A stretch of DNA of 64,000 bases from an uncultured Gemmatimonadales bacterium. Lineage in GTDB: Bacteria > Gemmatimonadota > Gemmatimonadetes > Gemmatimonadales > GWC2-71-9. The notes beneath the pieces are model-generated. The model had not been told where the DNA came from and searched no databases. It worked only from the letters and a program-made list of their open reading frames with translations. The stretch lies in contig CAWCVB010000005.1 in the NCBI GenBank assembly GCA_963798915.1, positions 441,291-505,290 of the forward strand, in the 5' to 3' direction. Below are positions 4,792-21,009 of this stretch, piece by piece. Both the position numbers and the translations under genes were made by a program. The first letter of the stretch is position 1. Each line of letters opens with the position of its first letter.

Positions 4792-4894
4792 GGCCAACTC
4801 GGCAGGTTGGAAGTGGTAGGTTGGTAGCTGGAAGATAGTTGCCAGACCCGCTAACGTGGCGATCTTGAAGGTTGATTCCCGCTTCCCACTGCTC

Positions 4895-6370
4895 ATGCCT
4901 TGCATCCTTGCGCTGGACCAGGGGACCACCGGCTCACACGCGCTCGTCCTCCACGACGACGGGCATGTGCTGGGCACCGGCTACCGTCCGATCACGCAGT
5001 TCTTTCCCGAGCCCGGATGGGTGGAGCATGATCCGGATGAGATCTTCCGGCTCACGGTGGAGGCGGCGCGCGACGCCCTGCGCGCAGCTGGCGAGCAACC
5101 GGACGCGATCGGTATCACCAACCAGCGCGAGACGATCGTTCTCTGGGACCGTCGCACCCTCGCTCCGGTTGCGCCGGCAATCGTCTGGCAGGACCGCCGC
5201 ACCGCGCCGCGCTGCCGGGAGCTGCAGCGGAATGGGCAGGAAGCGGTTCTGCGCGAGCGAACCGGGCTGGTCGCGGACCCGTATTTCAGCGCCACCAAGC
5301 TCGAATGGCTCCTGCGCCAGCCAGCGGTGCGCCAGCGGGCGGCGCATGGGGAGCTCGCCGCCGGCACGATCGACTCGTGGCTTGTCGCCCGGCTGACCGG
5401 CGGCCGCACGCATGTTACCGACCATACCAATGCGTCCCGCACACTGCTTTACGATCTCTCGACCCGCACCTGGGCCGATGAGCTGCTGGCAATGTTCGGC
5501 ATTCCGCGGGAGCTGCTGCCACGTATTGTCGCGTCCGGTAGTATCGTCGCCGAGACGGACGCGGCCTGGTTCGGGCGACCGATCCCCATCGCCGGCATGG
5601 CGGGCGACCAGCAGGCGTCGCTCTTCGGGCTCGGCTGCATGGCCACGGGCGAGGCCAAGAACACCTACGGGACGGGCGCGTTCCTGCTGGTCCACCAGGG
5701 CGACGTGCTCCCCGTGCCGCCGCAAGGCGTGCTGGCGACCGCCGCCTGCGGCGCACGGGGCGAGCCCGCCTATGCCCTTGAAGGTTCCATTCTGATCGCG
5801 GGCGCCGCCGTCCAGTGGCTGCGTGATCAGCTCGGCATCATCTCCACGGCGGGCGAAACGGAACGGCTGGCCCGCAGCGTGCCCGACACCGGTGGCGTGC
5901 ATTTCGTGCCCGCATTTGCCGGACTTGGCACACCCCACTGGGCGCCCGAGGCGCGCGGCATGATTACCGGCCTGACCCGCGGAACCAGCCGCGCACACAT
6001 CGCGCGGGCCGCGCTGGAGGCCATGGCCTTTGGCACGGCGGAGCTCTATCGGGCGATGGGTGCGACGTCGGGCCTCAAGGTGGACGGTGGGGCATCGGCC
6101 AATGACTGGCTCATGCAGTTTCAGGCGGACATCCTGGGGACTCCCGTGCAGCGGCCGGATGTGATCGAATCCACGGCGCTCGGCGCGGCCGGGCTGGCCG
6201 GCGTGACCGTCGGCATCTGGAAGAATGCAGAGGCCTTTCTTGCGGCACGATCGTTCACCGAATTTGTGCCCCGGATGTCCGCCGCGGAGCGCGCGCGCCA
6301 GCTCGCCGGATGGAGGCGTGCGGTGGCGGCAACGCTTGCATGGGCAACGCCCGATCAGGTCACGGAATAG
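4895..6370 (+). CDS. glpK: Glycerol kinase
   Basis: LALDQGTTGS, GITNQRET, WQDRRT, YFSATK, GDQQA, KNTYGTG, DGGA. Confidence 0.95.
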   Translation: MPCILALDQGTTGSHALVLHDDGHVLGTGYRPITQFFPEPGWVEHDPDEIFRLTVEAARDALRAAGEQPDAIGITNQRETIVLWDRRTLAPVAPAIVWQDRRTAPRCRELQRNGQEAVLRERTGLVADPYFSATKLEWLLRQPAVRQRAAHGELAAGTIDSWLVARLTGGRTHVTDHTNASRTLLYDLSTRTWADELLAMFGIPRELLPRIVASGSIVAETDAAWFGRPIPIAGMAGDQQASLFGLGCMATGEAKNTYGTGAFLLVHQGDVLPVPPQGVLATAACGARGEPAYALEGSILIAGAAVQWLRDQLGIISTAGETERLARSVPDTGGVHFVPAFAGLGTPHWAPEARGMITGLTRGTSRAHIARAALEAMAFGTAELYRAMGATSGLKVDGGASANDWLMQFQADILGTPVQRPDVIESTALGAAGLAGVTVGIWKNAEAFLAARSFTEFVPRMSAAERARQLAGWRRAVAATLAWATPDQVTE

Positions 6371-7802
6371 CAGCGCCGTGGCAGACGGTGCACATCTCCG
6401 GATTCTTCCTCCGAAGCCGCTCCGCATCGAAGCCGGGACCATGCGGATTGAAGCGGCGCCCGCCGTTGGCCGAATGACAGGTGAGGCAGTCGCGCTCGAC
6501 ATGACAGCTCACGCAAGTCTCCAGGGACTGCCGGGCCGCCTTGCCGTGCCCGAGGAGGAAGGTCGGGTTGGCATCGTGATAGTTGCCCCGCAGCGGGCCG
6601 CTGGAGCGAAGCCCCGCCTCGGCATGGCAGGTCATGCAGAATGAGGCCGTGTTGTGGCAGGCCGCGCAGTCGGACGCGCGCGCAAATGCCGCGGCCGGGT
6701 GACGAGTGAGGAAGCCGGCCGGGTGATACTCCTGCGCGGTGCCGGGTGTCGGCACGTGGCAGTAGAGACACTCGGTCCGGGCGTGACAGGTGGCGCAGGT
6801 GCGCGGGGCCGCGCGAGCGAACGCCGCATGATCCTCGGAAAAATCAGCGCCATGCGTGGCGGGGCGCCGCCGGGTGACGACGGCACCGGTGGCCCGTCCT
6901 GGACCGGCCACGGCCAGGCGCTTCACTGCGCCGGGTTCACTCCCGGCATGGCAAGTGAGGCAGCTCTCCCGTGTGTGGCAGGTGGCACAGGTTGACGCCG
7001 TGCTGAGGCCCCGGCCATGTGACTGCAGGAAACCGGATGACTGGTGTGATTCGGGCGCCGCGAGGGTCGCTGCGATCGCGGTGGATCGCGGGTCGGGCGC
7101 GAGCGCCTGGATCGCCGGTGTCTCGGGCGCGTCCACATGACACTGCAGGCAGAAATTCCGGGCGTGGCAAGTTGCGCACGACGCCGCGACACCGTGGGTA
7201 GCCCCCATCGTGGCCAGACGTCCATGCCCGCTGCTGCCGAAGCCGGCAACCTGGTGCGACGCTGGCTCCGGGAAGCGAGCGATGTCCTGCCTTGAGAGCC
7301 GGGTCGCTTGGGACAACGGCACGTGACAGGTGGCACACGCCGTGTCCGGTGCAGCGAAGTGGCCGCCGGTCACACCGTGACAGGAGAGGCAGGCGCCGCT
7401 AACGGCAAGCGACACCTGCATCCAGCCCTTGCCAGGGGGGATGTGACAGGCAGCGCAGCGTTGTGCTGAATCGACGGCGATTCCGCGGGAGCGACTGTAC
7501 TTCGCGGCGTGCGCGGTGTGCTGGAAGTCGAGGTTGGTGGCCGGCAGTTCGGTCGGAGGCGTCCAATCCACCCGGCGCTCCACGCTCCCGTCGTGGCAGA
7601 TGGTGCAGGCCACGCCTGCGGGATATGGCTGGCTGCCGGTAAGCACGCCGGCATGACAGCTGGTGCAGCTCGGGAACAACTTGGCATGCTGGTCATGGTC
7701 AAAGCGATCGGTCTGTCGGCCCAGGCGGGCGCCGCCCAATCCGATGGCCGTGAGCCCGACCAGCGCGAGCGCCAGCCGCAGATGAGTTCGGATCCAGGTC
7801 AT
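6360..7802 (-). CDS. Exported multiheme c-type cytochrome (16 CxxCH)
   Basis: N-terminal signal/anchor; 16 CxxCH counted by hand, ten of them in five paired repeats. Confidence 0.92.
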   Translation of the reverse strand: MTWIRTHLRLALALVGLTAIGLGGARLGRQTDRFDHDQHAKLFPSCTSCHAGVLTGSQPYPAGVACTICHDGSVERRVDWTPPTELPATNLDFQHTAHAAKYSRSRGIAVDSAQRCAACHIPPGKGWMQVSLAVSGACLSCHGVTGGHFAAPDTACATCHVPLSQATRLSRQDIARFPEPASHQVAGFGSSGHGRLATMGATHGVAASCATCHARNFCLQCHVDAPETPAIQALAPDPRSTAIAATLAAPESHQSSGFLQSHGRGLSTASTCATCHTRESCLTCHAGSEPGAVKRLAVAGPGRATGAVVTRRRPATHGADFSEDHAAFARAAPRTCATCHARTECLYCHVPTPGTAQEYHPAGFLTRHPAAAFARASDCAACHNTASFCMTCHAEAGLRSSGPLRGNYHDANPTFLLGHGKAARQSLETCVSCHVERDCLTCHSANGGRRFNPHGPGFDAERLRRKNPEMCTVCHGAAIP

Positions 7803-9298
7803 CGGCTGCGCTGCTCCGCGCCAGGCTTGCGCCGGCGCGCCGGGGGAAGCGGCGTCGTGCCGGCGCCACCGAAAAGCAGCGTAAGGCGGGCGTTGAGCCG
7901 AGTCTGGGTCCAGTCGAAGGCCGCGGCGTCCGGACGATCGCGGGTTTCCCAGTAACGCGCCACGCCGGCACCAGCCCGAATCCGGTCCGACGCATCCCAG
8001 TCCACCTCGAAGCCGACCGTGCTCACGGTTGCGTCGTCATACCGAAATTCCAGCGGTCGTTGAAGCGCGGCACCGTTGAGCTGAAATGAGAGCCGTGGAG
8101 CGGCGGTGTAGGTGACCGTGCCGTCGAGGCCTCGTGAGGCGGCGCCCGGCCCGAATTCGCGGTGCGCGCCAAGGTCGAACTGCCATTGCGGCGTGAGCCA
8201 GACCGATCCCCCTACAGTGGCGCGCCAGCCGGCGTCCTCGGCACGCACCAGCGGCGTCGACGCATCGCTGGCCTCAAACCAGTACCGCTCGCCCCGGGCG
8301 CGGAGCTCGATCCGGCGTCCAGGGCGTATCCAGACCGACCCGGCGATGCTGTTGAACGGCACCGGGCTGAACGCACCCCAGATGGTCCATAGATCGAAAT
8401 GCGGTCGGTAATGACGGGCGGCCAGCGCGACGGTCACCTGGGGACTGGCATAGCGCGCCTGGATGTCGGCGGTACCCCACAGGTTTGCCGCGATATCGTA
8501 CTCGCCTCCGCCGGCCAACGACATGTAACGGCCGACGCGAACGTCTCCCGAGAGTGCCATGCGCTCGGACACGAAGTAGTCGGAGCGTCCATCGAGCTCC
8601 CGCTGATATTCGAGGCGGAGATTCGTGCCGACGCCGCTGAAGCCGGCCGCCGCACCGTAAAGCCGGGTGCGCTGGTCTGGCCGGTACTCGTCGAGCGGGT
8701 TGAGGGCCGGGCTCGTGATCGGGAGCGCGGTGGCTCGTGCCAGGCCCCAGCCGGCGTAGGCTTCCGCCTCGACGCCGGATCTGCCCAGGCGGACTTTCGC
8801 CTGCGCACCATCGAACCCGGCGGCTCCGAGCCGCGTCAACATCGTCTGGCGCCCCACTCGCACCGTGACGGGCGTGGAAGCGTATTCCGCGTAGGCCTCG
8901 AGAAGTTGGGCCGACGGCTGCGTGCCAGGCCAGGCATTGCGGTCAGCCAAGTCAGTAAGCAGCCGGCCATCGAAATGCAGGCTGAGACGCGCCAGTCCAA
9001 GCCCCCAGACGGTCGCGACCGCTGATTGCGCGAATGGGGCGGCATGGACGACAGGGCCGGGCCGGAAGTAACGGCAGACACCGGCCGGATCACAGGACAC
9101 GGCAAAGCCAGCCTGGGTGACCGGGCCGCCGGTTGGTCCGGTCACGGTTTCCGCCTCCAGCACACTGTCTTCAACGACACCCCGGAAGTCCACCCGCTGT
9201 ATCCGGGAATCCAGGCGCAGGCTGTAGCCCTGGGCATGGAGTCCCGGTGCAACGCCGCCCAGTAGCACGGCGGCCACAGCCCATGCACGCACCCTCAT
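7799..9298 (-). CDS. Putative outer-membrane beta-barrel (porin partner of the cytochromes)
   Basis: Signal peptide ending LHA-Q; about 470 aa of alternating amphipathic, aromatic-rich strands; 'EAYAEY...VRVGRQ...GFDG' porin-like segment; lies between two multiheme genes with 4-nt overlaps. Confidence 0.75.
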   Translation of the reverse strand: MRVRAWAVAAVLLGGVAPGLHAQGYSLRLDSRIQRVDFRGVVEDSVLEAETVTGPTGGPVTQAGFAVSCDPAGVCRYFRPGPVVHAAPFAQSAVATVWGLGLARLSLHFDGRLLTDLADRNAWPGTQPSAQLLEAYAEYASTPVTVRVGRQTMLTRLGAAGFDGAQAKVRLGRSGVEAEAYAGWGLARATALPITSPALNPLDEYRPDQRTRLYGAAAGFSGVGTNLRLEYQRELDGRSDYFVSERMALSGDVRVGRYMSLAGGGEYDIAANLWGTADIQARYASPQVTVALAARHYRPHFDLWTIWGAFSPVPFNSIAGSVWIRPGRRIELRARGERYWFEASDASTPLVRAEDAGWRATVGGSVWLTPQWQFDLGAHREFGPGAASRGLDGTVTYTAAPRLSFQLNGAALQRPLEFRYDDATVSTVGFEVDWDASDRIRAGAGVARYWETRDRPDAAAFDWTQTRLNARLTLLFGGAGTTPLPPARRRKPGAEQRSR

Positions 9299-11304
9299 GG
9301 GCTGCGTTTTCCGGTGAGCGCCGGACGATACGCGTCGGGTGGCTCGAGCAGATGGCACGTCGTGCATTCACGCTCCGGGAAGTGGCTCACCTGCTCGGTG
9401 TGGCAGGTGAGGCACAGGCTCCGCGTGGGATGCAGTTGCGCCACCGTGCCTGGTGCATGGCACGCGTCACAGGCACGGTGCCCCTCGACGGGACGCGCAT
9501 GCGCCGGACGCACGCTCGCGCCGGCATGACAGGTGGAACAGTCGCGTTGCTGCGTGTGATGCGCTTCGTGGCAGTTGGTGCACGTGACCACGGCCGCGGC
9601 AGGCGCCATCGAGACCCGAGCGGTGTGACAGGTGGTGCACGTCACGCTGTCGTGGGCGCTATGCTGGAAGGCCGCTTCGCGGACGCGCGGGGTCCGGATC
9701 CCGACCTGGACGGAGAGCGATTCAGGGATGGACGGCGCCAGGTCGTCGGCACCATGACAGGTGCGGCACGTGTTGGTAGCGGGTGCTTGATGGTGGCAGA
9801 TCTGGCAGCCGCGTGGCGGCTGGAAGGTCAGGCCGCCGTGGCCGGTGCTGGTCGAATGGCAGGTGAGGCAGGGGAGAGCGTGGTGGCGCGCATGCGAGAA
9901 CGTGTCGGCGCGGACGGTGCCGGCGGGGAACAGCGATGGGGAGTCACGCGTCGAGAATCCATCGCCGGCCGGCCTGAGGCCGGCCACCAGCTCAGGCGGG
10001 ACTGTGGCGCCCATCGATACGCGCTGGAGCGCCTTGGTCGTATCGAACGCTTCGGGCGGCCGCAGTTTCCCCCCGGTGCGCTCACGCACGGCCTCGTGAC
10101 ACCCGGTGCAGTCGCTGGCGTCCACCCTGGCCTGGTGTGGCAGGTGACAGGTCTCGCATTGCGTGGCGACGCTCCGGTGGCGCAGCCCCGTGTGGAAGGG
10201 GAACTTCTTCCAGTCCGCGTGGCAGCCGGCCGAGGCACACGACTTGAGGGCCGCGCCAGGCGTAGTCTGGCGGTGGGGGTTGTGGCAGGTGCCACAGGTG
10301 CCGTTGTGCGGGTCGTTTGCCGGATCGAACTTGGCCGTGAGGGCAAGCATCTGGTGGCATGACTGGCACTGCTCCATGTGAGGCACCAGCGTTCCCACGG
10401 CTGAGTCTCGGGTGGCCAGCCGCGGGACTTCCCGCGTGAACTGATGGCAAACGGTACAGTGGATGGTGGCCTGATCCGCCATCTTGCCAAGCCGGATGTT
10501 GACGCTGTCGACCAGGTGGCATCCCTGCTGGGCGCAAGTGGCGTTCACCGGCCGGAACCGGTGCGCAGTCTGGGCATGGCAGGTCAGGCACTCCAACTTT
10601 CCCCGGAGAGAATCGCTCTCCAGGTGGGCGCGGTGGCCTGCCGTCGAAGCAATCTGCTGCCACGTCTCCTTGGCATCCCCCCGGACGTGGCATCGCTCGC
10701 AGACATCGCGCGGTACCTTGGCATGCGGGGGGATTTCCTTGTCGCGGCGCCCTGACATCCAGAAGATCAGCTTGACCGCTTCCTTGGTCGGATGCAGCGC
10801 GTGGCAAACGTGACAGCTGAGGGTGTCGTGCTTGCCCTCCACCCGGTGCACCAGGCTGTAGTAGCCGGTATCCGGCAGCACCCAGGCTTCGCCGCTGCCG
10901 ACAAAGATGTGGCAACCGTTGCAGAACCGGTTGTCCTTCTCGATGAACTGGTTGGTGCGATAGCCCATGCCGGCGACGAGCAGCAGTACCACGCCAGCGA
11001 GTCCTGCCATGGCCAGCTTGAGCCCGAGCGATCGCGAGCTGAACCAGGTGCCGATGCCCCGGCGCTGAAGCCAGAGCCACCGGAGGACGACCACCGCCAC
11101 GATGACGGCGAGAATGGCTCCACCCCACATCAACCAGGGCGGCCGCTGGAAGATCCACTGGACGACGGTGATGACCGGGTCATCCAGTCGAGGGTGCGTG
11201 AGGATGGAGTCGAGCGCCACCTGCTGGCCAGCTCCCACAACACTGGAGTCCTGGCCAGGGGCCAGGACTCCAGTGAAGACTGCACGAATGGCGGCGCCGT
11301 ACAC
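9295..11304 (-). CDS. Membrane-anchored multiheme cytochrome: NapC/NirT-like N-terminus plus extension (18 CxxCH + 2 CX4CH)
   Basis: Two TM helices, then FCNGCH/CHVCH/CERCH/CLTCH..AH in a NapC/NirT-like layout, then 16 further motifs including CAQQGCH and CASAGCH. GTG start uncertain. Confidence 0.88.
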   Translation of the reverse strand: MYGAAIRAVFTGVLAPGQDSSVVGAGQQVALDSILTHPRLDDPVITVVQWIFQRPPWLMWGGAILAVIVAVVVLRWLWLQRRGIGTWFSSRSLGLKLAMAGLAGVVLLLVAGMGYRTNQFIEKDNRFCNGCHIFVGSGEAWVLPDTGYYSLVHRVEGKHDTLSCHVCHALHPTKEAVKLIFWMSGRRDKEIPPHAKVPRDVCERCHVRGDAKETWQQIASTAGHRAHLESDSLRGKLECLTCHAQTAHRFRPVNATCAQQGCHLVDSVNIRLGKMADQATIHCTVCHQFTREVPRLATRDSAVGTLVPHMEQCQSCHQMLALTAKFDPANDPHNGTCGTCHNPHRQTTPGAALKSCASAGCHADWKKFPFHTGLRHRSVATQCETCHLPHQARVDASDCTGCHEAVRERTGGKLRPPEAFDTTKALQRVSMGATVPPELVAGLRPAGDGFSTRDSPSLFPAGTVRADTFSHARHHALPCLTCHSTSTGHGGLTFQPPRGCQICHHQAPATNTCRTCHGADDLAPSIPESLSVQVGIRTPRVREAAFQHSAHDSVTCTTCHTARVSMAPAAAVVTCTNCHEAHHTQQRDCSTCHAGASVRPAHARPVEGHRACDACHAPGTVAQLHPTRSLCLTCHTEQVSHFPERECTTCHLLEPPDAYRPALTGKRSP

Positions 11305-11318
11305 CGTGCCGACCAGGT

Positions 11319-12866
11319 CTAACGCATGGTGAGCGAACGGCGCGCCGGCTGCAGGCTCGAAGCCGGGAGCGGCTCGTCGAGCAAGCGCCGTGCAACGGCC
11401 GGCGGCGCGGGCAACGACGGATAGTTGGCCTGCATGTCCTTGATGCTTGCGCGCAGCAGCGCCTCGGCCAGGAAGGGATTGTGGACGCCAAGGCTCTTGT
11501 CGCCGTTGGCGTACAGTCCCTCGCCCACCAGGCGGGCGTTGAACTCGGCTCCTTCAGCAGACGTGATGATCGAGTCTCCGGCAAACTCTTCCGGATTGCT
11601 GCCCTTGATCGTCGGCAGATAGCCGGTGTCGGTGCCGGGATCAATGGCCTCGTTGCCATCCACATCCGTCCAGAGCACATCCGCCAGCGTCTTGAGCCGG
11701 TCACGCAGGTTGACGAGCAGCGACGCCGCCACGTCCTCCGATGCATGGCACCCGGAGTTGCTGCACGCGGCAAAGGTGCGCGCGCTGGTGGTGTAGCTGC
11801 AGCTGTTGTCGGCCACCGGCTTCCCGGTCCCATCAAGGCAGGGGATGGGCCGGAACAGGTGGCCGGTCGAGAAGATCTGCTCGCCAGTCAGGGTGTCGGT
11901 ATGCTGATAGGCATTGACGTGGCATCCGGCGCAGAGCCGCGGATTCCGCTCGGACGCATGGGACGTGAAGATCCGGGACGTGTCATATGCAAACCCGGCA
12001 GGGCGGTAGCCAGCGGTACCGAGAAGTACGGCGCCCTGCGGCGCGTGTGGCGTCGTTCCATGGCTCCCGCCGGCAGGTTCGGAGCGCCGGATGTGGCAGC
12101 GCATGCACAGGTTCAGCTCGGGATCCGGATTGGAGATCGAGAACCGGAGCTGCGACTCGTTGGGCGACCCATGCGGATCATGGCAGACTGCACACGTGGT
12201 GGCCATGGGTGTCGCGTCGTCATGTTCCACAAAGTTGGCATCCGCGTTCCAGGCTCGCAGGACCCCCTTGCCCTCGTGGCAGCTCTGGCATTCGGCGCGA
12301 CTCGCCGGCGAGGCAACCACCTGCGCATGGGCGGATTGTTTCCACTCATCGGCGAAGGGATTGTGGCCGCCCGAGTGGCACGCGGCGCAACTGGCAGCAG
12401 AATCATCCAGCGTCATGTGCGCCAACGGCACGTTACCGGGCAGGTCGGGGGCCTGCACATGCTCCAGCCCAGGGCCATGGCAGTTTTCGCACTGGACGTT
12501 ATGGTAGGCCGAATCCTCGACCAGATTCCAGCCGGCCGGTCCGGTGAGGCCGTTACCCTTCTCGTTCAGGGTATGGCAGCCAAAGCAGCTGGGCTGCGAA
12601 TGACCCGAGTTGATCAGCGTGGCATAGGCCTCGGCGTGCGCTGAGGTCTTCCAGTCCTTCCCGTGCTCGACATGGCAATTGCCACACGTCGTCTGGTTGC
12701 TGGCGACGTCGAACAGGCCAAGGAAGCCATTGATGCTGTCAGGTGGCGGGTTGAACGGCGGGCGGTCCCGGAAGACGATCTTGTCGGAACCGCAGCCTAC
12801 GAGCAAGGCGAGGGCCGTCAGGGTGAAACAGAGGAAGCTGGCACGGCGTCGGCTTGGCGCAGTCAT
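11319..12866 (-). CDS. Multiheme c-type cytochrome lipoprotein (8 CxxCH + 1 CX4CH)
   Basis: Lipobox LLVG-C; CGNCH, CFGCH, CENCH, CAACH, CQSCH, CAVCH, CMRCH, CAGCH, CSNSGCH; C-terminal DKSLGVHNP helical tail as in c552/OmcB-like multihemes. Confidence 0.9.
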   Translation of the reverse strand: MTAPSRRRASFLCFTLTALALLVGCGSDKIVFRDRPPFNPPPDSINGFLGLFDVASNQTTCGNCHVEHGKDWKTSAHAEAYATLINSGHSQPSCFGCHTLNEKGNGLTGPAGWNLVEDSAYHNVQCENCHGPGLEHVQAPDLPGNVPLAHMTLDDSAASCAACHSGGHNPFADEWKQSAHAQVVASPASRAECQSCHEGKGVLRAWNADANFVEHDDATPMATTCAVCHDPHGSPNESQLRFSISNPDPELNLCMRCHIRRSEPAGGSHGTTPHAPQGAVLLGTAGYRPAGFAYDTSRIFTSHASERNPRLCAGCHVNAYQHTDTLTGEQIFSTGHLFRPIPCLDGTGKPVADNSCSYTTSARTFAACSNSGCHASEDVAASLLVNLRDRLKTLADVLWTDVDGNEAIDPGTDTGYLPTIKGSNPEEFAGDSIITSAEGAEFNARLVGEGLYANGDKSLGVHNPFLAEALLRASIKDMQANYPSLPAPPAVARRLLDEPLPASSLQPARRSLTMR

Positions 12867-13046
12867 ATTTGACCCTTGAGAGGGAATCTGCATACAATAC
12901 CTACGGACATCTGCGGAGTTTCGCAAGCGCTGTGGGTATCCCATGAGCGGATCGTCACATATTCTTCATGAAATCTGCGCTTCCCGGCCCCACTCTTCAT
13001 TGTTACAACCACACGGTCGTCGTCTCGTTATTCTAGGGGCTCTGTG

Positions 13047-13731
13047 ATGAATCCACGGTTCTGCTCGGCGTGCGGGAGTCAGCTTCGGCCCGGCGGCCGC
13101 TTCTGCGGCGCATGCGGAGCGCCAGCCGATGGCGTCCCGGTGACGGCCTCAGGCGGAATGCGCCGCGTCGCCGGTCATCCTGGGTGCACTGGTGGTGCTG
13201 ACCGGGGTGGTGCTGCTGGCTCGGTCCCAGCGGCGGCCAGCGGAGCCGGACTCGTCGTTGGCATCGGCCGCCGGCGCCGGGGCGGTCATGCCACCTGACA
13301 TCAGTGGCATGTCGCCGCGCGAACGGTTTGACCGACTGTACAACCGCAGCATGACGGCAGCCGAAGCGGGCGATGCATCCACCCTGTCCACTTTTGCACC
13401 AATGGCCTTGCTGGCGTATGCCCAGCTCGACACCGTGGATGCCGATGCGCGCTATCATGCGGCCATGCTCCGGCTGCACACCGGAGACGTGCCCGGCGCT
13501 GCGGCGCTGGCCGATTCGATTCTGGCTGCAACGCCGGGCCACCTCTTCGGATACGTGATCCAGTTGACCGTGGCGCGCTGGCGGAAGGATACCGCCGCCG
13601 CCGCCGCCGCCCAGCGTGCCTTTGCGGCCCACTACGACGCCGAACTCCAGGCGGGCCGACCGGAGTACGCCGAGCACCGGACCATACTGGATGACACCCG
13701 CCGTGGCGCCTCGGCCACCGTATCGAACTGA
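13047..13731 (+). CDS. Zinc-ribbon + TM + TPR-like protein (CcmI/CycH-like), frameshifted near 13145-13170
   Basis: FCSACG..FCGACG ribbon in one frame; TM (PVILGALVVLTGVVLLA) and helical repeats in the next frame; first gene of the ccm operon. Confidence 0.6.
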
Positions 13732-13809
13732 CGGGCCGGCGTCCATGCTGCTATGTTGCACGTGATTGCCCGGACGACGGGCATGACTGCCTCCCGGAGA
13801 TAGGTCGAC

Positions 13810-14238
13810 ATGAAAGCCGGAACCAAATTCCTGGTCGGGGCTGCGGTGATCGTCGCCGCGGTCAGCTGGCTCATCGTGGCTGGCGTGCGCGAGACCGGTG
13901 TCTACTACCTCACGCCCACTGAGCTGGCTCAACGGGCCTCGGTGGACTCGAGCTACTTCGGTCTTGGTGTACGGGTCGGCGGCGCCAAGGTCGTGCCGGG
14001 CTCCGTGACCCGGAACGTCGCGTCGCAGGACATCGACTTCCGCATTTCGGACGGCCGTCAACAGTACCCCGTGCACTATCACGGGATCGTACCCGACACC
14101 TTCACGGGTGCCGACGACATCGAGGTCATCGTTGATGGAAGCCTGGGGCATGATGGGGTCATACGCGCCACCGAAGTGCTGGCGAAATGCGGGTCGCGCT
14201 ACGAGGCGGCGGCCGAGGACGCGCGCCGCCAGGCCTGA
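13810..14238 (+). CDS. ccmE: Heme chaperone CcmE, CxxxY variant
   Basis: YYLTPTE, VRVGG.VVPGS, YHGIVPDTF, LAKCGSRY (Cys in place of the canonical His). Confidence 0.93.
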   Translation: MKAGTKFLVGAAVIVAAVSWLIVAGVRETGVYYLTPTELAQRASVDSSYFGLGVRVGGAKVVPGSVTRNVASQDIDFRISDGRQQYPVHYHGIVPDTFTGADDIEVIVDGSLGHDGVIRATEVLAKCGSRYEAAAEDARRQA

Positions 14239-14244
14239 CGCACA

Positions 14245-16287
14245 ATGACCTTTCTCGGACAGTTCGCCCTCTGGACGGCGTTCCTGGTTGGTCTCTGGGG
14301 CGCCGTCGTGTCATTCTCCGGGCGCTGGCGCGAGCGGCCCGAGCTGGCGCGCAGCGTGCGCCGCTCGGTGTTCATGGTGTTCGCGGCCCTGGCCGTGGCG
14401 TCGCTGTGCCTCTGGAAGGGCCTGCTCGCGCACGATTTCAACATCGAGTACGTCTGGTCCTACACCTCGCGCAACCTGCCGACCTACTTTGTGGTGTCCG
14501 CGTTCTGGGCGGGGCAGAAGGGATCGCTGCTCTTCTGGGCCGTGGTGCTCTCCACCTTCGCAGCACTCGCGCAATTGCTGACGGCGCGCCGGCATGCGCA
14601 CCTCCTCCCATACGTGGCCGGCGTTACCAACTCGGTGGTGGCGTTCTTCGTGAGCGTCATGATCTTCGCTGCCAATCCCTTCAGCCGCCTGGACTTCACC
14701 CCGCTCGACGGTCACGGCCTGAATCCCCAGCTCCAGAACGTGGGCATGGTGATCCATCCGCCGATGCTCTACCTGGGCTACATCAGTGTCACGATTCCGT
14801 TTGCCTTTGCGGTGGCCGCGCTGCTCTCGCGCCGAATTGATTCGGGCTGGGTGGTCGCGATTCGCAAGTGGACCCTCGTGTCCTGGCTGTTCCTCTCGAT
14901 CGGCATCACGCTGGGGATGTGGTGGGCCTACGTTGAACTCGGCTGGGGCGGCTACTGGGCGTGGGATCCGGTCGAGAATGCCAGCTTCCTGCCCTGGCTC
15001 ACGATGACGGCCTTTTTGCATTCGGTGATGATTCAGGAAAAGCGCGGGATGCTGAAGCGCTGGAACCTTGGCCTCGTGGTGGGCTCGTTCCTGCTGAGCA
15101 TCTTCGGCACGTTCATCACCCGCTCGGGTGTCATTGCCAGCGTGCACAGTTTCACCCAATCCAACGTGGGCTATTTCTTCCTGGGTTTCCTGGCAATCGC
15201 GGGCGCGTTCTCGTACACGCTGCTGTACACCAGGTGGCCGTCGCTGGAACCCGACAGTCAACTGGAGAGCATGCTGAGCCGGGAGGCCGCCTTTCTCTTC
15301 AATAATCTGGTGCTAGTCGGGATCGCGTTCTCCGTCCTCTGGGGCACGCTCTTCCCGATTCTCTCGGAGTTGGTGCGAAACACCAAGATCACGGTCGGTC
15401 CGCCCTTCTTCAACAAGGTAAACATCCCGCTCGGGCTGCTGTTGCTGGCGCTGACCGGCATCGGGCCCCTCATCGCCTGGCGCCGGGCATCCCGCGCCAA
15501 CCTCCGGCGCCAGTTCACGGTGCCGCTGGGCGCGGGGCTTGGCACGGGCCTGGTGCTGCTCATTGCGGGCATGCGAGACCCGTACCCGATCATGGCCCTG
15601 GCCCTGGGCGGTTTCGTCACCGGCACGATCGGACAGGAGTTCTTCCGGGGGGTGCGTGCCCGGCGGCGGATGCACGGTGAGGGCGTGGTCGGAGCGCTGT
15701 TCCACCTGATTGCACGTAATCGGCGCCGCTACGGTGGCTACATCGTGCACGTGGCGATCGTCATCTACTTCGTCGCCTTTACCGGGATGGCGTTCAAGCG
15801 CGAGCGCGAAGCAACCTTGAAGCCGGGCCAGAGCATCCAGCTTGCCAGCCCCTTCGGCCATAACTACACGCTGACGCATGTGGGAGTCTCGCAATACAAG
15901 GCCTTGAACCGGTTTGTGACGGCCGCGAGCGTGCGCGTGAGCCGGGATGGCAAGGACCTCGGCATCATGACCTCCGAGAAGCGCCAGCATTTCACGGTGG
16001 AGAACGGCCAGGAAGTGGCCTCCTTCGAGCCGAGCACGGAGGTGGCAATCCGCAGCGACCTGCGCGAAGACCTGTATATCGTGTTTGCGGGCGCCGTCGA
16101 TGGCACCGAAGAGGCGGTCTACCGCTTCACCATCAATCCGCTGGTCTGGTGGGTCTGGTACGGAGGCGTCCTGCTTGCGATTGGCGGCCTGATCACGATG
16201 TGGCCGGGAGAGCCGCCGGGCACGACGCCCACACGCACGCAGGCAGGTTACACCGTGACGCTGGAAGGAGCTGGTGCCAGTGCCTGA
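14245..16287 (+). CDS. ccmF: Cytochrome c heme lyase CcmF
   Basis: GLNPQLQ, IHPPMLYLGY, WWAYVELGWGGYWAWDPVENAS, TRSGV.SVHSF. Confidence 0.97.
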   Translation: MTFLGQFALWTAFLVGLWGAVVSFSGRWRERPELARSVRRSVFMVFAALAVASLCLWKGLLAHDFNIEYVWSYTSRNLPTYFVVSAFWAGQKGSLLFWAVVLSTFAALAQLLTARRHAHLLPYVAGVTNSVVAFFVSVMIFAANPFSRLDFTPLDGHGLNPQLQNVGMVIHPPMLYLGYISVTIPFAFAVAALLSRRIDSGWVVAIRKWTLVSWLFLSIGITLGMWWAYVELGWGGYWAWDPVENASFLPWLTMTAFLHSVMIQEKRGMLKRWNLGLVVGSFLLSIFGTFITRSGVIASVHSFTQSNVGYFFLGFLAIAGAFSYTLLYTRWPSLEPDSQLESMLSREAAFLFNNLVLVGIAFSVLWGTLFPILSELVRNTKITVGPPFFNKVNIPLGLLLLALTGIGPLIAWRRASRANLRRQFTVPLGAGLGTGLVLLIAGMRDPYPIMALALGGFVTGTIGQEFFRGVRARRRMHGEGVVGALFHLIARNRRRYGGYIVHVAIVIYFVAFTGMAFKREREATLKPGQSIQLASPFGHNYTLTHVGVSQYKALNRFVTAASVRVSRDGKDLGIMTSEKRQHFTVENGQEVASFEPSTEVAIRSDLREDLYIVFAGAVDGTEEAVYRFTINPLVWWVWYGGVLLAIGGLITMWPGEPPGTTPTRTQAGYTVTLEGAGASA

Positions 16288-16882
16288 GCTGGACGCAACG
16301 ATGACCCGCCGCGGTTTGCTGGTCGGACTCCTCACGACCGGTGGCGCTGCCATGCTGGGGGCGCAGACCCAGTCCCAGGGTGACAGCCTCGCGGGTGGCG
16401 GCTCCATTGGCACCCTCGGGGCGCCGGGCCTGGCCGGGCGGCCCATGGCCCCGACCACCGCGGCTGACAACGACCTTGCCATTCAGGCGCTCGAAAAGCG
16501 GCTGCGCTGCTCCTGCGGATGCGGACTCGACATCTACACCTGCCGCACGACTGATTTCACCTGCACCTACTCACCGCAGCTCCATCGCGAGATCATGGAG
16601 TTCTGGAACAACGGCCAGTCAGCCGACCAGATCATCGCAGCGTTTGTCCAGGAGTATGGCGAGAAGGCACTGATGGCGCCGCCGCCCCGCGGCTTCAATC
16701 TGGCCGGATATCTGGTCCCGGGCATTCTCATTCTCATGCTGGGTGCCGTGCTCGCGTGGGTGCTGTTGCGCCGGCGGGCGCTGGTGGCGCCCGAGGGCGT
16801 GGCGGAACCACGGGCGATCGATGCCTCCGAAGCCGAGCTGGCAGAATTGAAGCGCGCCATCTCCGACGCGGATGCGGGATGA
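16280..16882 (+). CDS. ccmH: CcmH/NrfF-family maturation protein
   Basis: LRCSCGC, I...FV.EYG..AL..PP, C-terminal TM; follows ccmF; RBS GAAGGAG 9 nt before the GTG. Confidence 0.85.
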   Translation: MPELDATMTRRGLLVGLLTTGGAAMLGAQTQSQGDSLAGGGSIGTLGAPGLAGRPMAPTTAADNDLAIQALEKRLRCSCGCGLDIYTCRTTDFTCTYSPQLHREIMEFWNNGQSADQIIAAFVQEYGEKALMAPPPRGFNLAGYLVPGILILMLGAVLAWVLLRRRALVAPEGVAEPRAIDASEAELAELKRAISDADAG

Positions 16883-17364
16883 TCTGGGAACTGATCGGTG
16901 CACTGGCGCTGGGAGCCGCCGCCGTCTGGTTTGTACTTGCTCCGGTGGGCCAGCCACTTGCGCCCGAACGCGCCCGGCCTGCGGATCCCTTTGACGTAGA
17001 CGAAACCCCACGCTCGCGCGCTGTCGAGGCGTTGCGCGAAATCGAGTTTGATCGCGCCACCGGCAAGCTGTCGGACGCAGACTACGCCGCGCTCAAGTCC
17101 CGCTATACCGGCCTCGCGGTGCAGGCGATGCGACAGGAACGTGCGGCTGCGCCGGACGATGCCGACCTCGAGGCAATGATTGCCGCTCGACGAGGGCAGG
17201 CGTCCAGCGCCTGCGAGACCTGTGGGCCTCGCCCGGAGCCCGATGCGGTGTTCTGTTCGACCTGCGGCGGCCGGCTCGCGACCGGCCGCCTGTGCATGTC
17301 GTGCGCCGCCCCGGTGCCCGCTGACGGCGTATTCTGCGAGCGTTGTGGAGCCCGCGCCGCCTAG
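16879..17364 (+). CDS. CcmI-N-like membrane protein with double zinc ribbon
   Basis: TM, ALREIEFDRATGKLSDADY, then four CxxC pairs (CETC, CSTC, CMSC, CERC). Confidence 0.75.
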   Translation: MIWELIGALALGAAAVWFVLAPVGQPLAPERARPADPFDVDETPRSRAVEALREIEFDRATGKLSDADYAALKSRYTGLAVQAMRQERAAAPDDADLEAMIAARRGQASSACETCGPRPEPDAVFCSTCGGRLATGRLCMSCAAPVPADGVFCERCGARAA

Positions 17365-17365
17365 T

Positions 17366-17959
17366 CTACATCCGAATCAGCACTCCCATTTCCATCCGCA
17401 CCCAGGCCATGGCCGTTCGCCGGTATCCCTCGGCCAGGTCGTCACCGCTGAACACGCTCTGCGAGATGCCTGACGTCAGCCGGTTCTCGAATCGGAGCGG
17501 CCCCGTGCCGAAGCGCAGGGCGATGCCGGCGCCAGCGCCCAGACGGGTTCGTCGGCTTGCACTGCTCAACGTCCAGATGTCACCGCGGACTGCGAGGTCC
17601 AGCAGGAGCGTGGCCCCGCCGGTGCGGTGTACCGGATGCGCCAGCGACAGCACCACGCCGGTGCGCGAAAACGGCACTGCAGAGAGCTGAACAGCCGATG
17701 CGGAATCCGACGCCCGGAGAGCCGAGGGCTGCACTTCCACGGCGAGACCAAACTCAAGGCTGCCGGCACTGCGACGCACCCCCACGTCCGCACCCAGCCC
17801 TGGGCCAGGTCCAAAGCTGGTGCCGTCACGGTGTGCAGCCGGACTGAACCAGGTCTGACCGATGGCGCCCGTGGTCCACCAGCCGTGCTCCTGGGCCCTG
17901 CCTGCGCTCGGCAGGGCCAGCAGGAGTACGGCGACCGGTGCGATGGTGACCCGGTTCAT
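17366..17959 (-). CDS. Small exported beta-strand-rich protein (putative OM beta-barrel)
   Basis: Signal peptide ending GRA-Q; about 8 amphipathic strands; 4-nt overlap with the upstream lipoprotein gene. Confidence 0.55.
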   Translation of the reverse strand: MNRVTIAPVAVLLLALPSAGRAQEHGWWTTGAIGQTWFSPAAHRDGTSFGPGPGLGADVGVRRSAGSLEFGLAVEVQPSALRASDSASAVQLSAVPFSRTGVVLSLAHPVHRTGGATLLLDLAVRGDIWTLSSASRRTRLGAGAGIALRFGTGPLRFENRLTSGISQSVFSGDDLAEGYRRTAMAWVRMEMGVLIRM

Positions 17960-19173
17960 CGCATCTCCAACGCGATGTACCCATTGGTCTCGGCGTTCTT
18001 GCCCTTGATGATCCAGTTGTAGCCGGCGTGCCGCTCGGTCGTGGTGATATCCTCCACCGCATTGCCGATCAGGTCGTCGTTGGTCTTGATCAGCGAGCTT
18101 CCCAGCGACACAACTTGCTGCACCACCGGCAGATATTTCCAGACCTTGCCGTACCATGTGGTAACGTCGTTTCCGCCGGCAAGCCCCTTTACGAGCGCGT
18201 CCACGGCCTGGATGATCGACTTCAGGTCGGTCTGACTGGCCTTCATGACGCAGGGCGTGTCATCGTCCTCCACAAAGAAGAGCCGGAGCGCCTGGCCGGG
18301 GTGGGCGACCTTGAAGTTGTCCAGCTGTGCCTGGCTCATCAGCAACGCGGAGCCGATCCAGTCCTTGTTGTCCTGATTGAAGGAATAGGGCGCGACGGCT
18401 CGTTCGTTGATGCACTGGTACGAGGTGAGTGAATCCGTGCTCCCCTTTTGGCCGAGCACTGAGATCTCGATCTCCGGCGCACCCTTGAGCCAGGACTCGA
18501 AGGTGCTGTTGAGGTGACTCTGCGTGAGGTACAAGCCCGGCACCGGGCCGGATGACGTACTGACGCCGGAGGAGGTGCCGCCGCCGGACGATGTACCACC
18601 GCCGTCACAGTCGGTACACATCGCAAACGACAGGCTGCGCCGCCTGATCGCATTGAAGTCGGTTTCCCGCGGCACGACGGCCAGGACCGGGACATCAGGC
18701 GGGTGGTCGGGATCCAGGGCGATGCGCTTGCCATCGAGTGTGAACCCGACTGGGAGCGTTCCGTCGGCGCCGATGGTGCCCACCAGCAGATCGGGCCCTC
18801 CGTCCCATTTCGCGCGATGCTGCGGCACGGGGAAATAGACCTCCAGCTGCGCTGCGGCGGCCATGTCCACCGCGGCCCCGTCGGCACTGTGCAGGGCGGT
18901 GGCACCTCGCCCACCCGCCGCGGCCAGGAACCGGTCGACCGCGAGTTTGCCTTCGGGCACGGAGGCGCTGTCCAGTGCCTGATGGATATACGCACGAAAA
19001 TCCTCGTGAGCGAGCGCCCGGGAAAACCGGCGGGCAAGTTGCTCCCGCTGGATGTCCTGGTTGGCGCTCGCAGTCCGAGCTACGGCAGGGGTATCTGACT
19101 CCAGGACGGGCGATTCCGTTCCGGTGCTGCATGCCACGGCGATCAGGAGCAGTGGCAGAAGTGACTTCCTCAT
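17956..19173 (-). CDS. Hypothetical lipoprotein (DUF3103-like)
   Basis: Lipobox IAVA-C; FESWLKGAPEIEI and EDDDT segments resemble DUF3103 from memory; RBS GGAGG. Confidence 0.6.
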   Translation of the reverse strand: MRKSLLPLLLIAVACSTGTESPVLESDTPAVARTASANQDIQREQLARRFSRALAHEDFRAYIHQALDSASVPEGKLAVDRFLAAAGGRGATALHSADGAAVDMAAAAQLEVYFPVPQHRAKWDGGPDLLVGTIGADGTLPVGFTLDGKRIALDPDHPPDVPVLAVVPRETDFNAIRRRSLSFAMCTDCDGGGTSSGGGTSSGVSTSSGPVPGLYLTQSHLNSTFESWLKGAPEIEISVLGQKGSTDSLTSYQCINERAVAPYSFNQDNKDWIGSALLMSQAQLDNFKVAHPGQALRLFFVEDDDTPCVMKASQTDLKSIIQAVDALVKGLAGGNDVTTWYGKVWKYLPVVQQVVSLGSSLIKTNDDLIGNAVEDITTTERHAGYNWIIKGKNAETNGYIALEMR

Positions 19174-19287: not shown

Positions 19288-21009
19288 CTAGTGCTCGATC
19301 TGCTCCAGCCGGCGCACGGCCAGACTGAGTGAAATCACCGCCGTGCATCCGCAGAGCAGCAGCACGGCGCCCAGCGCCAGCACCAGCCCGGGCGAGAGTC
19401 TGAAGGATTCGCCAGCCTGGTGGGCCCGCATGTACGCGCTGACCGGAATGGCCTCGACCGCAATGAGAAGGCCGAGCAGCGCAATGCCGCTCATCATGAA
19501 CACCAGCCCGCCGAAGCTGGTCGGTATCTGGGCCGCGTTCTCAGTGTCGAACTTCGGGTAGAAGGCACCCAGACAGAGTGCCAGGGCACTGGCCGCGACG
19601 GCGAAGGAGAGGATCGTGCCGCAGCTCACCAGCATCATGAACGACGAGGCATGCAGCAGCAGGTTGGTGGTGATCGTGATCAGGAGCGCCAGGACGGCGA
19701 GCGGGGTGACGCCGAGCCAGAATTTGCTCAGCAGCAGCGTGCGCAAGCGCAACGGACTGGACTGAATGAGCCAGAGCTGGCGGCCCTCAAGCGAGACGGA
19801 CGGGAAAATGAACCGGGCCGCCACGGCCGTGAGCACGAACCCGGCCAACCCCAGGTTCAGGAACACGATGATGGTCACCAGAAAGAATGGGACCTTTTCG
19901 CCCGAAAACAGCGGCAGCGACTGGATGTTGAAGACGTACACCACGACCAGCACACCCAGCAGGATCAACTGGCTCCACTGGGTTGGATCCCGAAAGAACA
20001 CCCGCACGTCCTTGAGCAGGAACTCTCGCCGAGCGGGGCCCATGCCTCCCATGAAGCGGCTGATGATGGCCGACCATGAACGTCCGCGGACAAAGCGCTC
20101 GGCACCTTCCTGGGACTTGCTGTACCCATCGCGAAAGAGCCGGCCGTGGAGCCACCCGCCCATCATGACGAATGCAGCAGCCGTGGTCACGAGGAGCAGA
20201 ATCGGCAAGGGGTCCGCGATGTGGCGGAGCCAGTTCATGATCATGTCCGACGCCCACTGCGTCGGCAGAAAGGGGTTGGTTGGCGCCCGGAGAACGGCGA
20301 GAAAATCCACCAGGCTCTCAAAGCCCTCAGGACGGGCCAGCCGCTCCGGCCGTACGAGGCGGAACAGCAGCGCCACGCCGCCGGCCGCGCCCAGGGCCAC
20401 CAGGGTGAGCAGGTCCCGGATGCGCCGCGCGGGGAAGACATTCACCAGCAGCAACGTGATCCCGGCGCCAACGACGGCTGGCAGAATGATGAACGGCAGC
20501 AGTGCCGCCATCGCGACGAAGGGGAACAGCGGCCCGCCATGGAAGACGATGCCATAGGCGGTGAGGATGGGCACTGCCATCAACAGCACCATCCAGGAGC
20601 TGTGCCCTGCGGTCTCGAGCAGCTTGGCAAGGTACAGGCGGAACCAGTGCAGCGGTGCGGCCACCAGCAGGTCGAGGTCGCGTGCCAGGAAGAAGCTGGA
20701 GAGCGACGTGATCAGGTTCGACAGCAGCAGGATGGCGGCGAAGGCGAGGAAGATGACACCCAGCATCTTGGAGGCGAGGAGCACGCCGATTTCCTGGGTG
20801 CCGACATACCGGAGCACCCGGTAGCAGATCCCGAAGGCGGCAGTCCAGAACAGGGCGCCCACGATCAGGAAAAGGAGCATGCGAGTGCCGCGGCCATGCC
20901 GCCTGCTGCGGCTCCGCGCAAGCGCGCTGCGCCACTTGGGAGCGAGGACGTCACCGAGGCTGGGCTGATGCGGCACCTGCCGCACCGAGACGGGGAGGCC
21001 GCTATTCAT
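19288..21009 (-). CDS. Putative ABC exporter permease
   Basis: Multi-TM; FFLARDLDLL..AP, KD.R.F.RD..QW, SLEG...W..S.P motifs; coupled to an ABC ATPase. Confidence 0.85.
   Translation of the reverse strand: MNSGLPVSVRQVPHQPSLGDVLAPKWRSALARSRSRRHGRGTRMLLFLIVGALFWTAAFGICYRVLRYVGTQEIGVLLASKMLGVIFLAFAAILLLSNLITSLSSFFLARDLDLLVAAPLHWFRLYLAKLLETAGHSSWMVLLMAVPILTAYGIVFHGGPLFPFVAMAALLPFIILPAVVGAGITLLLVNVFPARRIRDLLTLVALGAAGGVALLFRLVRPERLARPEGFESLVDFLAVLRAPTNPFLPTQWASDMIMNWLRHIADPLPILLLVTTAAAFVMMGGWLHGRLFRDGYSKSQEGAERFVRGRSWSAIISRFMGGMGPARREFLLKDVRVFFRDPTQWSQLILLGVLVVVYVFNIQSLPLFSGEKVPFFLVTIIVFLNLGLAGFVLTAVAARFIFPSVSLEGRQLWLIQSSPLRLRTLLLSKFWLGVTPLAVLALLITITTNLLLHASSFMMLVSCGTILSFAVAASALALCLGAFYPKFDTENAAQIPTSFGGLVFMMSGIALLGLLIAVEAIPVSAYMRAHQAGESFRLSPGLVLALGAVLLLCGCTAVISLSLAVRRLEQIEH

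Follow-up and report, generated by a model that had tools for sequence, protein, structure and literature searches.

We describe here a gene at 9295..11304 on the minus strand of a 64,000-nucleotide stretch of DNA (the window) from an uncultured Gemmatimonadales bacterium (assembly GCA_963798915.1, contig CAWCVB010000005.1, forward-strand positions 441,291 to 505,290), which encodes a 669-residue cytochrome c with two transmembrane (TM) helices and 20 heme motifs. Judging from its sequence, it is rather probable that this protein is the menaquinol-linked inner-membrane entry of a four-gene porin-cytochrome conduit and carries a nonaheme carrier on a tether; by analogy, the best reading is that it would work like CymA or ImcH with a periplasmic carrier attached. 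NapC heads with extra hemes are already known from ImcH and TorC, and what is new is that such a head has gained a further 16 hemes, split into two blocks, and sits in a porin-cytochrome operon of Gemmatimonadota.

A single open reading frame for a membrane-anchored 20-heme cytochrome

The gene is a single open reading frame (ORF) with a GTG start, which is backed by homolog matches beginning at residues 1-14 in many loci. Its product holds 18 CxxCH and two Cx4CH motifs (the latter at residues 257 and 356), using all 40 cysteines; hemes are placed at residues 128, 164, 202 and 239, seven follow at 257-399, and nine more at 479-647, past a heme-free gap of 75 residues. Hydrophobicity peaks at 2.29 and 2.09 for the segments starting at residues 61 and 97, and AlphaFold2 (AF2) predicts helices at 56-79 and 93-123 with a predicted local distance difference test score (pLDDT) above 90, the second TM segment (94-113) standing directly before heme 1. 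An earlier, preliminary description of this DNA, made from the letters alone, had reported two TM helices followed by 20 hemes arranged as four plus seven, a gap of about 75 residues, and nine, and this layout is borne out by ORF, motif count, hydropathy and AF2. Because the stretch between the two helices is basic (three Lys/Arg, no acidic residue), the heme domain should face the periplasm according to the positive-inside rule.

Five segments can be told apart in the gene, all on the minus strand. TM helix 1 (residues 56-79; 11068..11139), predicted from hydropathy and AF2, is missing in some divergent orthologs, which have one TM only. It is followed by the NapC/NirT/NrfH-like module, delimited by profiles and a structure match and made of TM helix 2 and hemes 1-4 (residues 93-252; 10549..11028), by a seven-heme extension that contains both Cx4CH motifs and has tightly conserved spacing in the alignment (residues 253-403; 10096..10548), by the heme-free linker, variable in both length and sequence and of low pLDDT (residues 404-461, or 75 residues motif to motif; 9922..10095), and by a nine-heme, c7/c3-like module recognized from motifs and profiles (residues 462-662; 9319..9921), which is a separate gene in paralogous clusters. 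The linker had also been called Pro/Gly-rich, and while the gap itself is real, the enrichment is only modest (20% versus 13.8% in the whole protein). The full-length AF2 model reached a pLDDT of 63 and a predicted template modelling score of 0.41, and because of this low confidence no wire length was read from it.

A homolog search with residues 40-300 returned 441 proteins, 120 of which were listed; the same 20 motifs are present in 110 of these, 19 motifs in three, and 8-14 in seven shorter ones. Only three frames in the 64 kb of the window contain more than one CxxCH, all within the operon of this gene, and this confinement, together with the retention of the motifs in 110 of the 120 listed homologs, argues that the pattern is not due to chance. 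The observation of a single 20-heme membrane-anchored ORF is thereby confirmed, and the proposed fusion of a head with extra hemes is real and conserved as one ORF across homologs. A gene-call or assembly artefact was considered and ruled out, as the same single ORF recurs in those 110 listed homologs and in 110 fetched loci.

Relationship of the head to NapC, NirT and NrfH

Homology of the N-terminal module to NapC/NirT/NrfH appears supported, strongly through divergent orthologs and weakly from the window protein directly. The latter scores 23.4 bits on the NrfH model TIGR03153 (cut-off 134.2), and a search of PDB sequences with its head alone gave no notable match. We therefore report separately on a divergent ortholog set, namely the 36 of 40 fetched loci that have the same operon, the exclusions being three 22-heme paralogs and one locus skipped by the script. 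All 36 match TIGR03153 at E<=0.001 and keep the CxxCHxM motif, and 33 of them match PF03264 (Cytochrom_NNT) at the same threshold, compared to 26 of 81 members of the window clade. When the 36-ortholog profile was run against PDB sequences, Desulfovibrio vulgaris NrfH came out on top at E 6.5e-9, with the next match at E 0.028. With the same profile, E. coli NapC, TorC and TorY obtain 24-31 bits, and none of 500 shuffles that left heme motifs and His in place reached any of these scores; the controls NrfB, NrfA and NapB scored only 3-8 bits. With a mixed profile of clade and orthologs, 3-4 of 500 shuffles reached the target scores. Using hhalign, E. coli NapC was aligned to a profile of 81 close relatives of the window protein with a probability of 95.4 over 156 columns, the four motifs and the TM helix being in register, and to the ortholog profile with a probability of 97.8 over 147 columns, up to the His after heme 4, versus 82.3 over 57 columns for the NrfB control. 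Window clade and divergent orthologs, in turn, align to each other with a probability of 100 over 208 columns.

Structural comparisons were made with an AF2 model of residues 43-265 (pLDDT 84.6). NrfH (2j7a_C) was the sole match among the top 50 to span both TM helix 2 and the heme domain, with 118 of 145 residues aligned at a root mean square deviation of 4.3 and 23% identity; it ranked third, tied with helical-hairpin matches, and its Z of 4.8 lies under the trust level stated for the tool. NrfB gave a Z of 3.8 with 99 residues aligned. Foldseek returned nothing at E<=0.001 for either the full or the head model, VIA-align on the full model returned helical-hairpin matches only, and a search of the ESM Atlas with the head (scores 0.89-0.90, PF03264 in several clusters) is taken as a lead only.

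Linker and nonaheme module

Within each homolog set (110 close and 36 divergent), 18 of the 19 heme spacings vary by no more than 10 residues. The remaining one, between hemes 11 and 12, spans 52-151 residues in the close and 36-129 in the divergent homologs, shows no sequence conservation across the family, and is only 22 residues in homolog P0181; AF2 gives residues 418-468 a pLDDT below 50. Since the linker is free in both length and sequence, a flexible tether fits better than a rigid wire. The 16 additional hemes had been described as a single wire, and this part of the preliminary description has to be abandoned: they form two blocks, of seven and nine, split by the variable linker, and the nonaheme block exists elsewhere as a separate gene.

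Best PDB sequence matches of the nonaheme module are 3ov0, which we take to be GSU1996 (E 2e-12, profile positions 6-190), 1z1n (E 1.5e-12) and 1duw (E 1.8e-9), although these matches to c7/c3 polymers are partly driven by motif spacing. In paralogous clusters (L002, L157, L158 and L162-L165), a stand-alone nonaheme gene with a hydrophobic leader occupies the same slot, and the one found in this very genome (G000:C3, locus L002) is 47% identical to the module of our protein. That locus (G000:C3:15000-34000) holds, at 6326-18220, a second porin-cytochrome cluster composed of a 9-heme lipoprotein, the stand-alone nonaheme, a barrel and a 16-heme cytochrome, divergent from genes for a molybdopterin oxidoreductase, 5-heme and 4-heme cytochromes, a 4Fe-4S protein and NrfD; its 4-heme, 5-heme, Fe-S and membrane-protein set recalls the description of PCC4.

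As a separate observation, in some relatives this head, which scores 104-160 bits with the ortholog profile, is joined to 27-34 closely spaced hemes without a long linker, and these might be better candidates for a continuous membrane-anchored wire. Relatives with 27-34 or 10-12 hemes are P0212, P0221, P0226, P0227, P0239, P0242, P0247, P0259 and P0268, and P0217, P0232, P0237, P0246, P0256 and P0258.

The four-gene operon and its distribution

The gene is second in an operon of four genes and 45 hemes over about 6.6 kb, all on the minus strand. It is preceded, 14 nt upstream, by a nine-heme lipoprotein-like cytochrome (11319..12944; eight CxxCH and one longer motif, with a lipobox-like LVG-C at Cys51), and followed by a predicted outer-membrane beta-barrel (7799..9367) and a 16-heme cytochrome c with a hydrophobic N-terminus (6360..7802). 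The likely start of the barrel, Met24 at 9298, overlaps the stop of the 20-heme gene (ATGA), and the start of the 16-heme gene overlaps the stop of the barrel by four bases. The 16-heme protein matches the MtrC/MtrF II/IV Pfam domain above its cut-off. No Pfam match was found in the window barrel protein, nor any match among PDB sequences; its assignment comes from its homologs, 16 of 79 of which match OMP_b-brl and five Porin_4, none matching the MtrB/PioB family, and from its nearest named Atlas neighbours, which are outer-membrane barrel clusters (0.91-0.92). The nine-heme lipoprotein has sub-threshold matches only, to a UshA-like model (66.7 bits, cut-off 275) and to the ExtKL (seleno)cytochrome model (29.5 bits, cut-off 250). 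In the comparison with MtrAB/MtoAB systems, the DmsE/MtrA model TIGR03508 gave 28.7 bits against a cut-off of 192.2. The operon in the window contains no gene for a five-TM b-type inner-membrane protein. A promoter and terminator scan gave results at chance level, and a complex prediction for barrel and nonaheme (score 0.00, mark 0.32) was uninformative either way.

A porin gene next door had been anticipated, and is found well beyond this genome: we fetched 110 loci that carry the fused gene, and, counting those with enough flank to be informative, a barrel gene follows it in 102 of 105, a lipoprotein gene is present in 102 of 104 and a 16-heme gene in 88 of 89. The order lipoprotein, 20-heme, porin, 16-heme is nearly invariant. 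Loci were fetched as the 80 best GTDB matches plus 40 divergent ones hand-chosen from an even sample of 401 Gemmatimonadota genomes. The GTDB search gave 311 stretches; 78 of the best 80 bear the title Gemmatimonadota, and the other two Bacillota and Nonomuraea, respectively. The head was matched in 136 of the 401 genomes and in 58 of 147 genera, a few of the weakest of these 136 genomes representing the 22-heme paralog. As for the two records titled Bacillota and Nonomuraea that carry the 20-heme gene (L011 and L068), L011 shares the ccm and FGGY-kinase neighbours known from the Gemmatimonadales loci; this points to a problem of labelling or binning and not to transfer.

The heme-1 pocket and the points against a quinol-linked head

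Several of our results weigh against a menaquinol-linked entry and need to be considered together. PF03264, the Pfam family against which the head was to be checked, has no match in the window protein, and the hidden Markov model of the window clade alone fails the shuffle control, as 106, 111 and 218 of 500 shuffles reach the scores of NapC, TorC and TorY, respectively; the proposed NapC/NirT-like head thus stands through its divergent orthologs and not through the window clade, and the low Z of the NrfH structural match counts on this side of the balance too. The Met of CxxCHxM is replaced by Phe134 in 113 of 113 window-clade homologs. The position of NrfH Asp89 is Lys178 in the window (Lys in 100 and Glu in 13 of the 113), and the conserved quinol Lys, seven residues upstream of the distal position, seems not clearly kept in the family, being His171 in the window, Lys in 67 of 113, and mostly Ser or Thr in the divergent orthologs. 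The conserved His, 12 in the 11-heme and 10 in the 9-heme module, are enough for all hemes to be bis-His, and therefore an open heme-1 site is not implied. Furthermore, the genome also encodes a bc-type cytochrome b, NrfD and three heme-copper oxidases, so that other quinol oxidases exist in it. Genome context speaks in favour of such a head, in that an NrfD or cytochrome b gene lies near six of six well-flanked stand-alone-nonaheme loci versus 15 of 65 fused loci, and this fits a head that replaces a separate quinol module; the contrast, however, comes from a small, hand-picked sample of related genomes, and in the less-flanked stand-alone locus L165 no such module was seen.

According to the available text of the sources cited here and below, the proximal residue at heme 1 of NrfH is Met49, with Asp89 on the distal side and Lys82 tied to quinol binding, and CymA is without the heme-1 Met yet oxidises quinol (PMC3279761; bioRxiv 2022.01.10.475773), which means that this Met is not required in the wider NapC family. 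We took NrfH K82, CymA K91 and NapC K103 as the equivalent quinol-site Lys. The position corresponding to Asp89 is Gln in 22, Met in 11 and Glu in three of the 36 divergent orthologs; the heme-1 distal side of ImcH has also been modelled as Gln (bioRxiv 2023.05.03.539133). The window clade further has a 13-residue insertion between hemes 1 and 2. Other features of the head did not change: His159, His224, His227 and His248, which had been singled out in the preliminary description, occur without exception in the 113 aligned homologs, with counterparts in all 36 divergent orthologs, although we infer the match of each distal His to its heme (2-4) from ImoA and NrfH. Phe134, His165 and Trp182 are likewise invariant in the 113, and positions 174, 175 and 178 switch together between K/E/K and A/Q/E, leaving one acid on the helix. 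His165 and the Lys174/Glu175 pair, the latter found in 100 of 113, are candidate substitutes for the quinol-site residues. In a tree built from 63 rows, which comprise all 36 orthologs, 19 of the 56 rows that represent the clade in alignment A3, five paralogs and three E. coli proteins, the window clade is nested within the Met-keeping orthologs with a support of 100/100, and the change of the pocket therefore looks derived, provided that NapC, TorC and TorY are the outgroup. Judging from these alignments, the pocket, altered as it is, shows conservation and not decay. Because of the Pfam miss and of the changed pocket, quinol oxidation by the window protein is nonetheless only inferred.

The 11 divergent orthologs with a distal Met (alignment A4 position 124, loci L117-L129) keep CxxCHxM, which makes for an unusual possible ligand set, and carry Lys for His in the second heme motif.

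Proposed mechanism and alternative explanations

Based on homology, TM helix 2 and heme 1 would form an NrfH-type site for menaquinol and menaquinone on the periplasmic face of the inner membrane; futalosine-pathway menaquinone genes are present in the genome. Electrons would then traverse the 11-heme module, whose conserved spacing suggests a compact unit, and pass by direct contact to the nine-heme c7-like module on its long flexible tether, which would take the role of the free periplasmic carriers serving CymA or ImcH. As gene order suggests, the nonaheme would in turn exchange electrons with a unit of barrel, 16-heme cytochrome and lipoprotein at the outer membrane. The contour length of a 75-residue tether is, by simple arithmetic, near 270 Å, and the Shewanella periplasm is quoted as 235 ± 37 Å in the part of the source available, so that the nonaheme could reach the outer membrane. 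Once there, it would be out of contact with the head module, unless it swings or the distance is bridged by the other cytochromes, and the two other multiheme proteins of the operon could occupy the porin in its place. We advance only as a tentative and somewhat doubtful proposal that one chain connects quinone pool and outer membrane, by means of a remodelled quinol site, without the Met but with a Lys/Glu pair, and a nonaheme that docks on or in a barrel of a new family; if this were true, four co-transcribed genes would make up a self-contained trans-envelope conduit that needs no diffusible carrier.

As to direction, we consider it more likely that respiratory electrons are exported to acceptors outside the cell. 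Reducing low-potential menaquinone with Fe(II) is uphill, and this speaks against a conduit run inward, in which extracellular donors (Fe(II), reduced humics, or other cells) would reduce the quinone pool through the 20-heme protein. Such a flow could find sinks in the three heme-copper oxidases and in a nitrate-reductase-like module encoded in the genome, and CymA homologs do work both ways and occur in Fe(II) oxidisers (PMC6295460); however, in the available text of the same paper, NapC extensions of the ImcH type are reported only in Fe(III) reducers, and we regard inward flow as unlikely. It is also rather unlikely that the quinol site has decayed in the window clade, leaving the head as an anchor and relay that receives electrons from another inner-membrane complex. 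The lost Met, the distal Lys and the 13-residue insertion beside heme 1, all derived, would agree with decay, as would the lack of significant NapC similarity for the clade alone, but CymA remains active without the Met, Phe134, His165 and Trp182 are unchanged in all 113 homologs, the co-switch at 174/175/178 keeps one acid, and no other quinol module lies close to the fused gene in 50 of 65 loci.

Coming back to the tethered carrier that we favour, the alternative of a rigid, continuous wire of 20 hemes running from the quinol site into the porin lumen is quite improbable. Gene order would suit it, as mtrA precedes mtrB and here the nonaheme-coding end likewise stands directly before the porin gene, and so would the short gap of P0181; length would suit it as well, given that about 8-10 Å per heme amounts to 160-200 Å for 20 hemes, near the Shewanella value given above (the ten hemes of MtrA cover 80-104 Å in the source available). 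A gap of 36-151 residues between hemes 11 and 12, with unconserved sequence and the very low pLDDT of residues 418-468, is hard to reconcile with rigidity, and the nonaheme is nearer to c7/c3 polymers than to MtrA, as its score on the DmsE model indicates (28.7 bits, cut-off 192). Last, and very unlikely in our judgement, the system might not be extracellular at all, with the 20-heme protein feeding a catalytic cytochrome, that is the nine-heme lipoprotein, and the barrel admitting a soluble substrate. NapC-family heads do usually feed periplasmic enzymes (bioRxiv 2023.05.03.539133), and the weak UshA-like (66.7) and ExtKL (29.5 bits) matches of the lipoprotein, both below their cut-offs, could be read in this sense; a 45-heme operon whose barrel gene stands between two multiheme genes has, on the other hand, the standard porin-cytochrome layout (PMC5566968), and the MtrC/MtrF II/IV match of its 16-heme protein exceeds the cut-off.

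Comparison with known systems and significance

The head resembles D. vulgaris NrfH (PDB 2J7A/2VR0) and NapC/NirT/CymA in its TM helix before heme 1, its four hemes in register and its distal His positions, and the divergent orthologs share CxxCHxM with NrfH. It differs from NrfH and NapC by 16 further hemes, an extra TM helix and a shorter loop after heme 2, and, in the window clade, from NrfH by the absence of the Met, the Lys at the Asp89 position and the 13-residue insertion; while a NapC-family tetraheme has about 160-200 residues, the protein studied here has 20 hemes in 669. Proteins of this family had been presented as normally stand-alone tetrahemes, which does not always hold, as ImcH has seven hemes and TorC/DorC five. 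Like ImcH of Geobacter and TorC/DorC, our protein extends a NapC-type head by more hemes in one chain, and 22 of its 36 divergent orthologs have the distal Gln that is modelled for ImcH, which feeds extracellular electron transfer. ImcH, compared here by its description, has three TM helices, seven hemes (6-10 in homologs) and a Cx3CH first motif, whereas our protein has two TM helices, a CxxCH first motif and 20 hemes; no mtrAB was found beside ImcH in the available text (PMC6295460), while our gene adjoins a barrel gene. Neither ImcH nor TorC/DorC, the former of seven hemes and TorC of five, has a tethered nonaheme. ImdcA of Thermincola ferriacetica, also compared by description, is a decaheme of the inner membrane for which oxidation of the quinone pool, serving extracellular transfer, has been proposed (PMC7911101), but it has ten hemes, a Gram-positive host and a separate periplasmic carrier, PdcA.

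GSU1996-type c7 polymers, HmcA and nine-heme cytochrome c, the best PDB sequence matches of the C-terminal module, are free periplasmic proteins, unlike the tethered module. At the level of the cluster, MtrCAB, OmbB-OmaB-OmcB, PCC3 and PCC4 also have a barrel gene flanked by multiheme genes, and PCC3 and PCC4 encode their own inner-membrane quinone-linked protein (PMC5566968); that protein, again compared by description, is a separate five-TM b-type protein, whereas here a c-type head is fused to the periplasmic carrier. Unlike MtrAB/MtoAB, there is no DmsE/MtrA decaheme above cut-off and no MtrB/PioB barrel among the 79 barrel homologs. CbcL/MtrH/MtoC proteins are reported with up to 23 hemes on a b-type membrane domain (PMC6295460).

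A 2026 survey reports porin clusters that include NapC/NirT-like genes, as well as cytochromes in which more than 20 motifs occur, and the fusion is not described in its available text (PMC13264449), nor in that of PMC11492766, PMC11495043, PMC12133095 and PMC9671151. No published account of the 20-heme protein or its cluster was found in the literature searched, supplements and most subscription papers being outside it; clusters of this sort might be listed in PMC13264449 (Table S2, Fig. 6) and in PMC5566968 (Tables S3-5). The largest NapC-type extension that we found in print has 10 hemes, and a survey of Desulfuromonadia, in its available part, counts only three inner-membrane cytochromes with more than 10. 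Nor did the literature searched contain a characterised pathway with this kind of conduit in Gemmatimonadota.

How electrons cross the periplasm between an inner-membrane quinol oxidase and an outer-membrane conduit is an old question in the study of extracellular electron transfer, and one CymA plus one MtrA are too short to span it, as stated in the part of the source available. A quinol-linked head and a periplasmic carrier in one chain would bear on this question, with naturally split versions for comparison, one of them in the same genome, and with its four genes and 45 hemes in about 6.6 kb the unit makes a compact test case. Its spread over 136 of 401 sampled genomes suggests an overlooked capacity for extracellular electron exchange in Gemmatimonadota.

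Neighbouring genes and other observations

Divergent from the operon, on the plus strand, lie the cytochrome c maturation genes ccmE (13810-14238), ccmF (14245-16287) and ccmH (16274-16882). Ordinary neighbours in the window are gyrB (205-2181), an FGGY sugar kinase gene converging on the operon (4856-6370), an ABC transporter pair with a transglutaminase-like gene (19288-23298) and uvrA (24404-27280).

L130-L132 and L166-L171 encode another fusion with a NapC head, which has 22 hemes and a single TM helix and is flanked by genes for 9- and 11-heme proteins, cytochrome b and b561; PF03264 is above cut-off in L171, and in L171 and L130 this fusion is clustered with the lipoprotein, barrel and 16-heme genes known from the operon. 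In six loci (L044, L058, L075, L140, L038 and L067), operon genes are split in two frames or run together, which may reflect assembly errors. In L059, a 38-heme frame lies downstream of the operon, and in 14 other loci (L016, L023, L024, L027, L031, L033, L035, L040, L045, L051, L053, L054, L067 and L069) a pair of large cytochromes, one with 23 hemes and one with 14-25, is encoded 3-6 kb downstream of it.

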